A DNA stretch of 64,000 nucleotides from Flavobacteriales bacterium (GTDB taxonomy: Bacteria; Bacteroidota; Bacteroidia; Flavobacteriales; Flavobacteriaceae), in the NCBI GenBank assembly GCA_038202695.1, contig JBBRET010000011.1, positions 6,544 to 70,543 on the forward strand, written 5' to 3'. Below the pieces are notes generated by a model that was not told the DNA's origin, did not search any database, and was given only the letters and a program-made list of their open reading frames with translations. The position numbers and the translations under genes were made by a program. Shown here in pieces: positions 37,326 through 60,921 of this stretch (position 1 is the first letter of the stretch; the number at the start of each line of letters is the position of its first letter).

Positions 37326-37444
37326 AAAATGTATTTTAATGTGGTAAAAATAATAAAGAAAATTGTTTTTCTTCTTTATAACGTACAAAGTTTTAACTTT
37401 ATTATAATAAACGTAAATTTGCCGCTTAAATTATATATCCACTG

Positions 37445-37481
37445 GCAACTTTGCAACTTTGCAACTTTGCGACTTTGCAAC
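37445..37481 (+). repeat. GCAACTTT tandem repeat (about 4.6 units) in the leuS leader
   Basis: GCAACTTT x3, GCGACTTT, GCAAC, between TAAATTTG (37414) and the ATG (37488). Confidence 0.85.
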
Positions 37482-37487
37482 AAGATA

Positions 37488-40367
37488 ATGAAGTACTTCC
37501 ACGAAAAAATCGAAGCCAAATGGCAAAAGTATTGGGCTAAAAACCAAACGTTTGCTGCCACTAATACTTTTAATTCTGAGCCTTCCGAGACACAAAAACC
37601 AAAGTATTATGTGCTAGACATGTTTCCGTATCCTTCTGGAGCCGGTTTGCACGTTGGTCATCCGTTAGGTTACATTGCTTCCGATATTGTGGCGCGTTTC
37701 AAACGACATAAAGGGTTTAATGTTTTGCATCCGCAAGGTTATGACTCCTTCGGATTACCCGCAGAGCAATATGCCATTCAAACCGGACAGCATCCCGAAA
37801 AAACAACTAAGGAAAATATTGCACGCTATCGGGAACAATTAGATAAAATTGGTTTTTCGTTTGATTGGAGCCGGGAAGTACGCACTTCAAACGCCGATTA
37901 TTATAAATACACACAATGGATTTTCATCCAATTATTCAATTCGTGGTACAATAAAGAAACCGATAAAGCAGAAGACATTTCGACACTGATTTCAAATTTT
38001 GAAATGGGAGGCAATACTAATGTCAATGCTGTTTGTGATGATAATGTTGCGGTGTTTTTTCCGTCAGAATGGCATGGGTTTTCAGAAGAAGAAAAACAAA
38101 AAATCCTATTGCAATACCGATTAACTTATTTGGCAGAAACCGAAGTAAATTGGTGTCCGGCTTTAGGAACGGTTTTGGCCAACGACGAAATTGTAAACGG
38201 AGTTTCTGAACGTGGCGGTCATGCTGTTATTCGTAAAAAAATGACACAATGGTCAATGCGAATTTCTGCTTACGCCGAAAGATTATTACAAGGTTTAGAA
38301 TCCATCGACTGGAGCGAATCCATAAAAGAGTCACAACGCAATTGGATCGGAAAATCAGTCGGAGCTACCGTAGATTTTAATGTTGAGCATTTAAGAGAGC
38401 GCATTTCAGTATTCACTACGCGTCCTGATACCATCTTCGGGGTAACGTTTATGACCTTAGCTCCTGAACACGAATTGGTTGGTAAAATTACAACTCCTGA
38501 ACAAAAAGCAGCAGTTGAGGCTTATGTTGAAGCTACAGCCAAACGGTCCGAACGGGAAAGAATGGCAGATGTAAAAACCATTTCTGGAGTATTTACGGGT
38601 GCTTATGCGGAACATCCATTTACAAAGGAATCAATTCCGGTTTGGATTGGTGATTATGTTTTAGGGGGTTACGGATCTGGTGCTGTTATGGCTGTTCCTT
38701 GTGGCGATGAAAGAGATTATGCCTTTGCCAATCATTTCAAAGGACAAAACGGAATGCCAGCAATCAAAAATATTTTCAATCAAGATGTTTCAAAAGAAGC
38801 ATTTGGAAGTAAAGATGGATTTGAATTAGTAAACTCCGATTTTTTAAATGGTTTGGGTTATAAAGCTGGAACTAAAAAAAGTATAGAAGAATTAGAAGCC
38901 ATCCGCCAAGGAAAAGGCAAAACCAATTACCGTTTGCGTGATGCCGTTTTTTCCCGTCAGCGCTATTGGGGCGAACCATTTCCGGTGTATTATGTGAATG
39001 GAATGCCACAGATGATAGAAGCTAAACATTTACCAATTGTATTGCCAGAAGTAGCCAACTATTTACCAACCGAAGACGGACAACCGCCTTTAGGAAATGC
39101 CACACATTGGTCTTGGGATACTATTAACAACAAAATTGTCTCAAACGAACTGTGTCATGCCGATCCTTCCGAAGCAGCTCTTAACGGCGTATATCCTCTA
39201 GAACTAAACACTATGCCAGGTTGGGCAGGCAGCTCGTGGTATTGGATGCGGTATATGGATGCGCACAACGAAACTGAAATTGCTAGCAAAGAAGCATTGA
39301 AATATTGGGAGAGTGTAGATTTATACATTGGCGGAAGCGAACATGCAACCGGACATTTATTATACTCACGTTTTTGGAACAAGTTTTTAAAAGACAAAGG
39401 CTACGCACCAACAGAAGAACCTTTCAAAAAACTGATTAATCAAGGAATGATTTTGGGAATGAGTGCGTTTGTTTACAGAAGTGAAGATTCCAAAAAACTA
39501 TATTCAAAAGGATTAATTGCTAGAGAAAAAGTTCATCCAATCCACGTTGACTTAGCTGTAATCAATGATATTACCAACGAATTAGATATTGAAGCGTTCA
39601 AAAAGCATCCCTTATATTCTGATTACAAAGACGCCGAGTTCATTTTAGAAAATGGCAAATACATCGTTGGTCGCGAAGTCGAAAAAATGTCTAAATCAAA
39701 ATACAATGTGGTCAATCCGGATGACATTTGTAATGATTATGGTGCTGATACGTTACGATTGTATGAAATGTTCCTTGGTCCGTTAGAACAAGCAAAACCA
39801 TGGAATACTGCTGGAATAACTGGAGTTTCAGGCTTCCTAAAAAAACTATGGCGTTTGTATTTTGATGACAATTCAGGTTTGAACATTACCGAAGAAGAAC
39901 CAACCGCTGAAATGTACAAAGCGCTGCACAAAACCATCAAAAAAGTAACCGAAGACATCGAGAACTTTTCATTCAACACATCCGTTTCACAGTTTATGAT
40001 TTGCGTCAACGAATTGGCAACCTTGAAATGCCATCACCGAAAAATATTAGAACCATTAACCATCACCATTTCGCCTTATGCACCACATATCGCTGAAGAA
40101 TTATGGAGTCAATTGGGTCACGAAGGCTCAATTTCAACAGTTGCTTTTCCAATTTGTGAAGTAAAATACTTAGTAGAATCTGAAAAAGAATATCCAGTTT
40201 CTTTCAACGGAAAAATGCGTTTTACGATTAAGTTACCTTTAGATTTAACCGTTGCGCAAATTCAGGAAATTGTTTTGGCAGACGAAAGAACCATCAAACA
40301 ATTGGATGGGAAAACTCCGAATAAAGTCATCATCGTTCCTGGAAAAGTGATAAATCTGGTTGGATAG
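37488..40367 (+). CDS. leuS: Leucine--tRNA ligase
   Basis: FPYPSGAGLHVGH (HIGH), FTTRPDT, KMSKS; start placed at ATG 37488. Confidence 0.98.
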   Translation: MKYFHEKIEAKWQKYWAKNQTFAATNTFNSEPSETQKPKYYVLDMFPYPSGAGLHVGHPLGYIASDIVARFKRHKGFNVLHPQGYDSFGLPAEQYAIQTGQHPEKTTKENIARYREQLDKIGFSFDWSREVRTSNADYYKYTQWIFIQLFNSWYNKETDKAEDISTLISNFEMGGNTNVNAVCDDNVAVFFPSEWHGFSEEEKQKILLQYRLTYLAETEVNWCPALGTVLANDEIVNGVSERGGHAVIRKKMTQWSMRISAYAERLLQGLESIDWSESIKESQRNWIGKSVGATVDFNVEHLRERISVFTTRPDTIFGVTFMTLAPEHELVGKITTPEQKAAVEAYVEATAKRSERERMADVKTISGVFTGAYAEHPFTKESIPVWIGDYVLGGYGSGAVMAVPCGDERDYAFANHFKGQNGMPAIKNIFNQDVSKEAFGSKDGFELVNSDFLNGLGYKAGTKKSIEELEAIRQGKGKTNYRLRDAVFSRQRYWGEPFPVYYVNGMPQMIEAKHLPIVLPEVANYLPTEDGQPPLGNATHWSWDTINNKIVSNELCHADPSEAALNGVYPLELNTMPGWAGSSWYWMRYMDAHNETEIASKEALKYWESVDLYIGGSEHATGHLLYSRFWNKFLKDKGYAPTEEPFKKLINQGMILGMSAFVYRSEDSKKLYSKGLIAREKVHPIHVDLAVINDITNELDIEAFKKHPLYSDYKDAEFILENGKYIVGREVEKMSKSKYNVVNPDDICNDYGADTLRLYEMFLGPLEQAKPWNTAGITGVSGFLKKLWRLYFDDNSGLNITEEEPTAEMYKALHKTIKKVTEDIENFSFNTSVSQFMICVNELATLKCHHRKILEPLTITISPYAPHIAEELWSQLGHEGSISTVAFPICEVKYLVESEKEYPVSFNGKMRFTIKLPLDLTVAQIQEIVLADERTIKQLDGKTPNKVIIVPGKVINLVG

Positions 40368-54413: not shown

Positions 54414-54439
54414 GAGTTTTGAAACGAGTTCAGAATGAC
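54414..54439 (-). repeat. REP-like palindrome, copy 5
   Basis: Minus strand reads GTCATTCTGAACTCGTTTCAAAACTC. Confidence 0.55.
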
Positions 54440-58170: not shown

Positions 58171-60921
58171 TTAAAACTGATAGTTTACACCTAAGCTTAG
58201 TGTAGCGCCTCTTTTGTATGAAAGAACATTTACATCAGCACTACTGTTTTCCTGAACTCTGTTAATTGTTGGGTTTAAAAGATTTTTGGCAACTAATCCT
58301 AATCCAAGATTCTTGTTTAGTTTTACTTTTGTAATAAAATCTAATGACCCAAATGCTTTGTCTACCTGATTTCCTCTGTTGTTTGTTCCAATTGAATAAA
58401 CTCTGTCTGAAAATTGGCTGAAGGCGATTGTGGTGGTCAAGTTGCTTTCTTTGTTATTCCATTCAGAAAGGAATGAAATATCAGCATTTAATAATAAATC
58501 AGATGCACCAGTTAATTTACTTTCCTTGTTGGTAAAAGCAACATTATAATCAGTTTCTTTAATTACTTTAGATGAATTTAATTCTTGATTACTGTAGAGA
58601 TAAGATGCGTTTATACCAGCAGAAAGTTTTTTAGCATTTCCTTCACTAAAGTTAAATAGCACTTTTCTGTACTCAACTTCGGCTCCTGCTACATAACCAT
58701 AATCTCCGGTGTTCACATAAGAAATGTCATTGGTTGACGAAACAATAGTTACTTCGTTTATTGGATTTAAAATATATTTTCCGAATGCTGTTATCGAAAC
58801 TAGTTCCTCGCTTTTTGGAAACATTTCCCATTTGATGTCTACATTATAATCGTCAGACTCATATAAATTTGGATTACCAATTTTAGACTCATTTACTTCT
58901 TCATAAATAAACAAAGCTCTTTCTTTAAACTGCGGTAAGGTATAGGTTTTACTAAATCCGAAACGTAAATTTTGTTTTTCGTTCAATTCATATTTTAAAA
59001 TCAAACTCGGCAAAAAAGCTATTTTATCCAATTCATCTTGACCACCATTAGGATCTAATGAAGTGTTCCATTGCACTTTTTGCAATAAATATTCTCCTCT
59101 TAAACCCAATACAGCTGTTACTTTATTGAACTTGTATTCAGTATTTAAATAACCGCCATTTACAAATAAATCACCTTCATAAAATTGCGGATTAGTTGCT
59201 CCCGGAGCATTCGAATTACCTCTGAAAGTAGAAATTTGAAAGAAACCATTATTGTAATTTTGTTGATTAAAAAACAAATCTAAATTATCAATGTCTACGA
59301 TATCTCCAGAATTAGCATTGCTTGGTTTGAAATTAAATTGTGTTGCTTCAAAATTTCTTTTCTTGATTTTTGCAGAGTAACCTGCAGTGAATTTACCTTT
59401 AAAATCACCATCTGCATTTTTGTTGAATTTGTAATCAAAAGATAAATTGGTTGCCACTTCTGTTTCATCTAGTTTTTGGAAATACCGGTGATTGTTTGCT
59501 GCAGATTGCCCCAAAAGTATATAGCCACCGGTAGGTTGTAGGTTTAAAGTGTTTTGGGTTCTGTCTGGCTGATCTCCTGTAATGGTGTTATAGGAAACGC
59601 CCCAATTGAATTTTGAACGTTCTGAAAATTTATGATCACCCAATAATTGATTTATCCACAGAGTGTTTTTGTCGTATTTGTTTCTGCGGATGAAACCATT
59701 ACCATCATCGCCACCATCCACAAAATATCCTGTATATTCTTCTTTAGAAAGTGCTGCTGTATTGATGAATATGGAATTAAAATTGATTTTATTATTGCTG
59801 TTTATTTTGTAACCAATATTAGCCATTCCCGTAAAATTGGTTGAATAACTCATTGCGGTATAATCATTAAAATCTTTATTGGCAACTCCACTTCCGTTGA
59901 TGCTTTTTACGCTACCATCGGTAATAGAATTGTATTCATTGCTATAATTGGCAGTAGCAAAAAGATTTAATTTTCCTTCCGATCCAATATCGAAATTTTT
60001 TCCTCCTGATAGTCCGATTGTACCAGCAAACGGATTTTTGCTTTCTAGTTGTAAGGTGTTAAATCCATAAGAAGTTAATGGGTTATTTGGAATAGAAGTG
60101 GTGCTAAATCCAAAGCTATTATATCCTTTTTGTAGTTTGAAGTTATCTTCTGCAATAGAATTGGTGTTGATTTTAGAACCAATCTCCAACTTCAAAAATC
60201 CTTTGCCTTTATAATCTTTAGAAATAATGTCAACGTTTCCTCCAGCAAAATCTCCAAATAACCTACTTGTGTAAACTTTATCTATCGAAACCGATTCTAC
60301 GATATCTGTTGAGAAAATTTCCAAATTTAAATTCTTCTTTTCTGGATCTTGCGACGGAATTGGCAATCCGTTCATTGTAGTAGAGTTGTATCGGTCGCCC
60401 AATCCTCTTACAAATATATTTCCAGTACCTTCTTGTTTGGTTATCCCAGTCGTTTTAGTCACAGCTGTTGCAACATCACTAACTCCTTTTCTTGACATTT
60501 CTTGAGCGCCAATACTTTGTTTAATCTCAACTGCTTTTTTTTGTTCTAACAATAAAGCGGTTTCTTTTTCACGACTCACAGTGTTCTGAATCACTACATC
60601 CTTCAACTGATAGCTTCCTGAACCCAACGCTTTATTTAAGGTAATAGTTTCTCCAGCCTTTACTTCTACTTTTTCTTCTACTGTTTCATAGCCTAAAAAG
60701 CTAAATTGTACAATGTAACTACCAGCATCAACTGTAATAGAATATTTCCCGGTTTCATCAGTTGTTACTCCGATAGTGGTTCCTTTAATAATCACGTTAG
60801 CAAAAGGCAGTGATTCATTGTTTACATCTTTGTCCGTCAAAACCCCAATAATCGTTCCTTTGTTTTGTGCAAAACCAAGAACAGTGACCAATAAAAAAGT
60901 GAAAATTAGTTTAAATTTCAT
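58171..60921 (-). CDS. TonB-dependent receptor
   Basis: Signal peptide from ATG 60921; N-terminal carboxypeptidase-regulatory-like domain; plug VRGLGDRYN...KVYTSRLFGDFAGGNVDI; barrel ending NYQF. Confidence 0.92.
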   Translation of the reverse strand: MKFKLIFTFLLVTVLGFAQNKGTIIGVLTDKDVNNESLPFANVIIKGTTIGVTTDETGKYSITVDAGSYIVQFSFLGYETVEEKVEVKAGETITLNKALGSGSYQLKDVVIQNTVSREKETALLLEQKKAVEIKQSIGAQEMSRKGVSDVATAVTKTTGITKQEGTGNIFVRGLGDRYNSTTMNGLPIPSQDPEKKNLNLEIFSTDIVESVSIDKVYTSRLFGDFAGGNVDIISKDYKGKGFLKLEIGSKINTNSIAEDNFKLQKGYNSFGFSTTSIPNNPLTSYGFNTLQLESKNPFAGTIGLSGGKNFDIGSEGKLNLFATANYSNEYNSITDGSVKSINGSGVANKDFNDYTAMSYSTNFTGMANIGYKINSNNKINFNSIFINTAALSKEEYTGYFVDGGDDGNGFIRRNKYDKNTLWINQLLGDHKFSERSKFNWGVSYNTITGDQPDRTQNTLNLQPTGGYILLGQSAANNHRYFQKLDETEVATNLSFDYKFNKNADGDFKGKFTAGYSAKIKKRNFEATQFNFKPSNANSGDIVDIDNLDLFFNQQNYNNGFFQISTFRGNSNAPGATNPQFYEGDLFVNGGYLNTEYKFNKVTAVLGLRGEYLLQKVQWNTSLDPNGGQDELDKIAFLPSLILKYELNEKQNLRFGFSKTYTLPQFKERALFIYEEVNESKIGNPNLYESDDYNVDIKWEMFPKSEELVSITAFGKYILNPINEVTIVSSTNDISYVNTGDYGYVAGAEVEYRKVLFNFSEGNAKKLSAGINASYLYSNQELNSSKVIKETDYNVAFTNKESKLTGASDLLLNADISFLSEWNNKESNLTTTIAFSQFSDRVYSIGTNNRGNQVDKAFGSLDFITKVKLNKNLGLGLVAKNLLNPTINRVQENSSADVNVLSYKRGATLSLGVNYQF

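Follow-up and report, generated by a model that had tools for sequence, protein, structure and literature searches.

The stretch of DNA analysed here, referred to as the window, spans 64,000 nucleotides of a Flavobacteriales draft genome (GenBank assembly GCA_038202695.1, contig JBBRET010000011.1, positions 6,544 to 70,543) and carries leuS, the gene of leucyl-tRNA synthetase (LeuRS). Within leuS, the 24-mer TGTCATGCCGATCCTTCCGAAGCA (39153-39176, forward strand) is read in the frame of the gene as CHADPSEA and is directly followed by ALNGVYPLELNTMPGWAGSSWY, at the position and in the frame given by the original prediction. The CHADPSEA(AL) segment, termed site 2, is very probably the relic of a TGTC-tagged hairpin repeat of a family designated class A', which sits in frame in an insertion-tolerant loop of LeuRS as a neutral or nearly neutral addition.

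The gene is single-copy in the window genome (labelled G000; a 2.86-Mb draft assembly, 94% complete), with one full-length match and no interruption; the source names of proteins assign the organism to Flavobacterium. A mechanically called open reading frame (ORF) at 37329-40367 carries leuS, with the 24-mer in its frame 1, and the likely start of the gene is the ATG at 37488 (MKYFHEKIEAKW); the 53 preceding codons have no counterpart in relatives. In a PDB search the product matches the LeuRS of T. thermophilus (1h3n; E = 4.9e-167) and of E. coli (E = 6.5e-161). It contains PF00133, PF09334, PF13603, and PF08264, and both HVGH and KMSKS are readable in the translation. Full-length similarity, class I signature motifs, and LeuRS-specific domains together identify it as a class Ia LeuRS of bacterial type. 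The extension upstream of the start (37329-37487) is AT-rich, also lacks a counterpart in PDB LeuRS, and is probably the leuS 5' leader.

Site 2 was compared by LeuRS alignment with 30 relatives and then with 40 further loci. Most Flavobacterium species and other Flavobacteriales families read SN-x-L-ID-NKT-[VI]FPLE at this point, while the window LeuRS reads SNEL-CHADPSEAAL-NG-VYPLE and is exactly seven residues longer. The segment therefore faces a seven-residue gap in these sequences and does not align to them without gaps. An even sample of the genus, in which 382 genomes contained the fragment and extra length was scored as matches of 489–507 nt versus 474 nt, places the window genome among at least 27 of 382 Flavobacterium species that are longer at site 2; ~93% have no insert. 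Every close relative within a group of 84–89% identity bears some insert at site 2, in a sample of relatives that was enriched for insert-bearing alleles through word matching. The closest full-length relative found, P0002 (87% identity), has a class A' repeat at both site 2 and a second position, site 1.

The loop that holds the segment lies just upstream of the conserved MPGWAGSSWY motif. With gaps, it aligns to ETTCPKCGGPAKRD of T. thermophilus, immediately ahead of the conserved DTMDTFFDSSWYY. Judging from the alignment, Thermus may form a four-cysteine knuckle from ETTCPKCGGPAKRD together with a CEAC upstream of it, and Flavobacterium LeuRS lacks the cysteines of this presumed knuckle. 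Taking the common uninserted Flavobacterium form as reference, loop lengths across Flavobacteriales run from ~15 fewer residues to 12 more, and this variability suggests that site 2 may be a surface loop. Many congeners also have extra sequence of variable length at leuS residues ~665–682 (window ~39480-39535), in the region of the leucine-specific domain, which appears in genome searches as split matches (1–665 and 682–959).

The link to a repeat family comes from orthologous alleles. At the same codon, congeners hold CHAEPVEA[SL]H, for example CHAEPVEASH, encoded by TGTCACGCTGAGCCTGTCGAAGCG, GTCAYGCTGAGCCTGTCGAAGCR, or close variants. These are clear, less decayed homologues of the window segment. 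They belong to class A', which has the form TGTCA-NNN-TGAGC[C/T]TGTCGAAG-N'N'N'; an intact repeat reads GTCACACTGAGCCTGTCGAAGTG and intergenic copies read GTCA...TGAGCCTGTCGAAG. The stem covaries, the triplet after GTCA and the last three bases being CAC/GTG, TGC/GCA, TCC/GGA, CCC/GGG, or GGC/GCC. Genomic copies carry the end tag (t)GTCA, and the leuS copy begins TGTCAT. Allowing up to three mismatches, class A' copies number 36 in G286, 24 in G250, 18 in G011, 15 in G160, and eight in the window genome, with reversed-pattern controls giving 0 in all genomes. The core TGAGC[C/T]TGTCGAAG occurs ~25 times in the window genome, nearly always with TGTCA in front, and most copies there lie outside long ORFs. 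Class A' thus has the properties of a hairpin repeat: many copies, mostly between genes, a covarying stem, and a tetranucleotide end tag. The form of repetitive extragenic palindrome (REP) that the original prediction gave, GTCATGCTGAGC[C/T]TGTCGAAGCA, is present verbatim in congeneric genomes, and the likeness it saw to an intergenic copy at 54439 is also real. The 12-mer GTCATTCTGAAC at 54428-54439 on the reverse strand is part of the 25-mer listed in the table, a slightly decayed copy of a CTGAAC-type class, A2.

A second insert in leuS was also foreseen, and it exists at site 1, where the window reads AATNTFNSEPSETQKPK, seven residues more than the usual AASNNSEKPK. The corresponding segment is CQSEPVEDQ (TGTCAGTCTGAGCCTGTTGAAGAC) in one relative, and in another species the site is occupied by a repeat of a different class (class C, described below), read as SSPTLEGLGEV. 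Given class A' at both sites in P0002, the two inserts of the window lineage look inherited, and both look more decayed in the window than in P0002.

Relative to the family form GTCATGCTGAGCCTGTCGAAGCA, the window copy at site 2 matches at 19 of 23 bases and differs at four, and its peptide deviates from the consensus CHAEPVEASH at four of ten residues. Some of this apparent decay (CCTTCC for CCTGTC) may have been inherited from a variant of the source repeat, as one intergenic copy in the window genome likewise reads TGAGCCTTCCGAAG. The CCTTCCGA common to sites 1 and 2 may accordingly be a source variant and not parallel decay.

The state of this copy is the first of several matters that weigh against a repeat origin or against parts of the account given here. 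Its hairpin is lost, with a 3-bp helix of -2.2 kcal/mol that is no better than shuffles, so the expectation that the mismatches would weaken it holds; intact inserts of other classes fold at -9.8 and -16.4 kcal/mol. The exact 24-mer has only self-matches in the window genome, even at up to five mismatches, and its connection to the repeat family is visible only via orthologous inserts. Since the copy is unique and unfolded, its sequence by itself would not establish its origin, for which the case is built on homology with those inserts. A variable loop of the ordinary lineage-specific kind, with a coincidental likeness to the repeat consensus, would show the same features, and the length of the loop does vary across Flavobacteriales even without repeats. 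Such a coincidence is scarcely credible, however. The reversed-pattern controls give 0 matches in 2.86 Mb even at six mismatches, so a 19/23 match to the family form is not chance. Intact family members stand at the very same codon in orthologous alleles and the same pattern recurs at site 1; the orthologous inserts, the family copies, and P0002 already contradict it. The AlphaFold2 model of the 959-aa LeuRS does not help the loop assignment, as it is poor (mean pLDDT 50.5, pTM 0.30, from a 39-sequence alignment).

Class A' is not the only repeat found at this codon, which at least five further classes occupy in other species. Class A (TGTCATGCTGAACTTGATTCAGCATCTCA) is read as CHAELDSAS, class B (GTCACCCTGAGCGCAGTCGAAGGGC) as VTLSAVEG, class D, in several variants, as VNPSAVEG among other peptides, and class E (GTCATCTCGAGCGGAGTCGAGAGAC) as SSRAESRD. 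Class C is an unrelated G/C-rich hairpin (CTCCCCTCCTTCGGAGGGGTTGGGGGAG, SPPSEGLGE). The peptides are unrelated and are read from different frames of the repeats. Classes A and B/D are themselves genomic repeats, with 21 copies of class A in G023 and 81 copies of class B/D in G180, where the dominant CCCC/GGGG variant is the one in leuS. Resident repeats can also be replaced. In L064 a class E repeat is nested in a class D repeat and the sister allele L063 has class D alone, which indicates that replacement in situ also occurs.

Class C appears to have a separate source. It is scarce, and in several genomes all copies lie within leuS. L018, the leuS of G009, contains an in-frame DUF559 (PF04480) cassette after the position of residue 303 of the window LeuRS, with an inverted and slightly diverged class C copy (CCCCCAACCTCCTCCGAAGGAGGGGGAG) at the 5' end of the cassette. 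The class C repeat at site 2 looks like the solo end of such cassettes, and this tie means that two unrelated repeat systems would have used this LeuRS loop. In-frame cassettes of ~120–135 aa that encode this Vsr-like nuclease domain, in the region of the editing domain, are found in the LeuRS of L018, L053-L058, L060, L062, and L075.

This diversity bears on what the added residues do. It may be that the insert is repeat-derived but now functional, altering a surface of LeuRS and perhaps thereby escaping an inhibitor or binding partner, or forming an RNA or DNA hairpin that modulates leuS translation or recombination, and is kept by selection. Some classes are indeed very uniform in peptide, with CHAELDSASH and VTLSAVEGQSS recurring across many clusters at 90% identity, which could reflect selection rather than recent spread. 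The DNA of class A is almost invariant while its flanks vary at synonymous sites, and no member of the 84–89% identity group is without some insert. Function is nonetheless unlikely. CHAEPVEA, VTLSAVEG, SPPSEGLGE, and SSRAESRD are unrelated peptides of unrelated repeats that occupy one codon, the great majority of sampled species do without any of them, and the window copy has shed both its hairpin and part of its consensus peptide; the close relatives were drawn from the sample biased by word matching. We think that the peptide is tolerated rather than used, because unrelated peptides from different frames occur at the same codon, most species lack an insert, and the window copy is drifting. 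The original prediction of a domesticated insert is thus upheld for an in-frame repeat origin and not for domestication, as tolerance, not function, is what the unrelated peptides argue for.

The repeats are accompanied by small nuclease genes. On contig C15 of the window genome, a small single-domain GIY-YIG gene (118-aa ORF; Pfam GIY-YIG, E = 1.2e-18) has class A' copies on both sides, at 58686 (+) and 59060 (-), with more class A' copies within 1 kb. Its orthologues in G250, G011, and G095 also adjoin class A' copies. A second GIY-YIG gene of the window genome, on C34, has class F repeats (TGTCTTTCCCGCGAAGGCGGGAATCC) on both sides, in an array with a 62-nt period. Class B/D copies stand on either side of GIY-YIG paralogues in G126, G095, and G180, and a paralogue in G023 adjoins class A. 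Each TGTC-tagged class checked (A, A', B/D, and F) therefore accompanies its own small GIY-YIG gene. Four class F (NTS-like) repeats, arrayed at a period of 112 nt, also adjoin the C15 gene (C15:57700-59500; L086, L090).

From these neighbourhoods, the GIY-YIG nuclease is the probable agent that recognises and spreads the repeats. Less favourable to this role, the best PDB relatives of the GIY-YIG protein are UPF0213 proteins; an NCBIfam search of the GIY-YIG proteins gave no match. In addition, the published SRM search motif, HGTCWYN(0-2)YYVSBRHN(0-5)WNVSBRGN(0-2)RNCYNB, fits neither the leuS copy nor any of classes A', A, B, C, D, and E; it fits the published NTS and one of two class F copies tested. 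A REP-associated tyrosine (RAYT)/Y1 transposase was rejected as the mobiliser. PF01797 was not found in the window genome at its 94% completeness, so no repeat-flanked Y1 HUH transposase gene is seen there; the domain is present in 12 of 16 congeners, where four PF01797 genes are free of repeats out to 1.5 kb.

In a LeuRS tree from which the insert columns were removed, the classes of insert lie scattered and several insert/no-insert sister pairs have support of at least 98, with DNA identity within these pairs falling only locally, in the immediate surroundings of the insert. The sister alleles L015 and L073 are 96–99% identical save for a ~70-nt patch carrying the insert, and in this patch the sequence of L015 is nearly the same as that of L044, another class A allele. 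As the patch differs together with the insert, we read L015/L073 as a gain or loss that would have proceeded by short-patch homologous recombination between conserved flanks, with transfer in one direction or the other.

The flanks of insert alleles resemble each other close to the site. The distance over the 63 nt upstream is 0.21 among insert alleles versus 0.30 to others, distant flanks are without this contrast, and the nearest neighbour by the upstream 63 nt is likewise insert-bearing for 24 of 26 insert alleles. Where the residue beside the site is serine, 25 of 26 insert alleles encode it by TCN, as does one of 16 uninserted alleles, the other 15 using AGY. We read these shared flanks, too, as a trace of the exchange of repeat-bearing patches. 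A common flanking haplotype could instead mean that insertion requires that target sequence. One haplotype common to the insert alleles is further what a single old lineage would leave if the ancestral LeuRS of Flavobacterium had possessed the segment and repeated losses had followed, the intergenic repeats being unrelated to it or derived from it. Ancestry of this kind is highly improbable, since outgroup families and most congeners lack the segment, six or more unrelated sequences stand at the site, each matching a repeat family whose intergenic copies number in the tens, and every TGTC-tagged class checked has a nuclease gene to itself.

Site 2 is one of several points at which repeats have entered proteins of this lineage, in keeping with the proposal that repeats act as a source of new protein loops there. 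In the leuS of relatives, repeat-bearing points lie near residues 28–36 (site 1), 299–303, 430–436, 723, and 803 in the numbering of the window LeuRS. Outside the window, the RmlD protein (dTDP-4-dehydrorhamnose reductase) of the window genome contains an in-frame repeat resembling class B (GTCACACTGAGCGCAGTCGAAGTG) that encodes CHTERSRS, eight residues at the position of an exact gap relative to PDB 1vl0. Three further in-frame copies in this genome are read as VTSSAVEK in a 293-aa ORF, as LILKQVQSKQVQSK in a SusC/TonB-type receptor, close to its N-terminus, and as ENLKQVQIE in a 1276-aa membrane protein. Among the commonest 14-mers of the window genome are those of tandem heptamers (AATTATG/AATTACG) and of purine-rich stretches (AGAAGGA, AAGAGAAA).

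Table. Coordinates of leuS, its inserts, and related features. Positions without a contig label are those of the window; labelled ones refer to contigs of the same genome outside the window.
Feature	Position	Strand	Basis or sequence
leuS, leucyl-tRNA synthetase, 959 aa from likely start	37488..40367	+	Pfam and PDB matches
Site 1, repeat-derived FNSEPSETQ, +7 aa relative to orthologues	37569..37595	+	Homologous to CQSEPVEDQ in relatives
Site 2, in-frame CHADPSEAAL, net +7 aa/+21 nt relative to uninserted alleles	39153..39182	+	Alignment gap and orthologous inserts
Site 2 repeat core, decayed class A' TGTC-tagged hairpin repeat	39154-39176	+	GTCATGCCGATCCTTCCGAAGCA; family match
Class A2 (CTGAAC-type) intergenic copy, slightly decayed	54415..54439	-	GTCATTCTGAACTCGTTTCAAAACT; 21/25 match to GTCATTCTGAACTTGTTTCAGAATC
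GIY-YIG gene with class A' copies	C15:58737-59018		Pfam GIY-YIG
GIY-YIG gene with class F repeats	C34:23034-23261		
RmlD, in-frame class B-like repeat	C2:107565-107588		Gap relative to PDB 1vl0
293-aa ORF, in-frame copy	C44:8128		
SusC/TonB-type receptor, in-frame copy	C31:6489		
1276-aa membrane protein, in-frame copy	C10:74190		

Taken as the relic of a class A' repeat, site 2 would have arisen by entry of the repeat into leuS in frame, with the extra residues read as part of the loop upstream of MPGWAGSSWY. This loop, variable in length, would tolerate almost any short peptide, and the insert could therefore persist as neutral or nearly neutral residues. The copy has drifted in this genome, with four of its 23 bases off the family form and the hairpin gone. 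A GIY-YIG nuclease probably recognises and spreads the repeats, short-patch homologous recombination would account for the gain or loss in L015/L073, and a resident repeat can be overwritten in situ by another.

A more far-reaching proposal, put forward tentatively and with considerable doubt, is that the LeuRS loop serves as a cassette site. A hairpin recognised by a nuclease would make the position a hot spot, repeats current at the time would overwrite residents, and ~70-nt patches would cross between species via the conserved flanks. If this were true, a single codon would record competing systems of hairpin repeats and nucleases, namely the GIY-YIG-linked TGTC repeats and the ends of DUF559 cassettes, and the GIY-YIG partners would be new Ssn-like specificities outside the published SRM motif.

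The findings imply that selfish hairpin repeats are not just intergenic but repeatedly write peptides into tolerant loops of an essential enzyme in free-living Flavobacterium. At a single codon the genus displays a natural series of empty, intact, nested, swapped, and decayed states, which is usable for studying the gain of protein loops and their transfer between species by short-patch recombination. Likely new specificities are also indicated for the small GIY-YIG (Ssn-like) single-strand nucleases. For annotation, REP-coded peptides such as CHAEPVEA, VTLSAVEG, and SPPSEGLGE in housekeeping proteins are to be seen as insertions, not as family signatures.

Several known systems share parts of this arrangement. 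Among them are the Rickettsia palindromic elements (RPE), in-frame palindromic repeats described by Ogata et al. (2000), as cited in PMC3733652. Going by that citing account, both are short, dispersed palindromic repeats that lie in frame in still-functional genes, add a short peptide, and decay. Like an RPE, the site 2 insert keeps the frame of an uninterrupted gene and is missing at that point from most orthologues. The systems differ in that the host here is a free-living Flavobacterium, the elements are shorter (~23–28 nt, adding 7 to 14 aa), and many repeat classes occur at the same codon of one essential gene.

REPs tagged with CGTC or GTAG, including intragenic copies, are known from several phyla, and CGTC repeats have been reported from Bacteroidetes (Di Nocera, De Gregorio and Rocco 2013, PMC3733652). 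The CGTC-tagged REPs resemble the repeats described here as small (C/T)GTC-tagged hairpins that are found chiefly between genes and, in some copies, entirely within ORFs of known proteins. In the present case, however, the tag is mostly TGTC, and PMC3733652 does not describe Flavobacterium, leuS, recurrent insertion at one codon, or a nuclease partner. REP/REPIN-RAYT systems (Nunvar 2010, PMC2817692; Bertels and Rainey 2011, PMC3116915) are similar in that dispersed hairpins flank the single-copy gene of a presumed mobilising enzyme, but the flanked gene here encodes a GIY-YIG nuclease and no Y1 transposase (PF01797) is detectable in the window genome.

The repeat–gene–repeat architecture itself is known from the Ssn GIY-YIG single-strand nucleases with SRM, NTS, and dRS3 repeats (Chenal et al. 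2025, PMC11893778). Shared features are a small single-domain GIY-YIG gene between repeats, a nuclease paralogue for each class, and a 5' tag (HGTCW), and class F of the window genome (TGTCTTTCCCGCGAAGGCGGGAATCC) fits the published NTS and SRM patterns. The class A' repeat of leuS and classes A, B, D, and E differ in lying outside the published SRM motif. A word search of PMC11893778 turned up neither intragenic nor in-frame copies and no Bacteroidota, and literature searches returned no specific description of in-frame repeats in Flavobacterium or in LeuRS. In-frame insertion of a repeat is an event already known from other systems; Flavobacterium leuS stands out for the many repeat classes that have made use of a single codon and for the apparent GIY-YIG partners.

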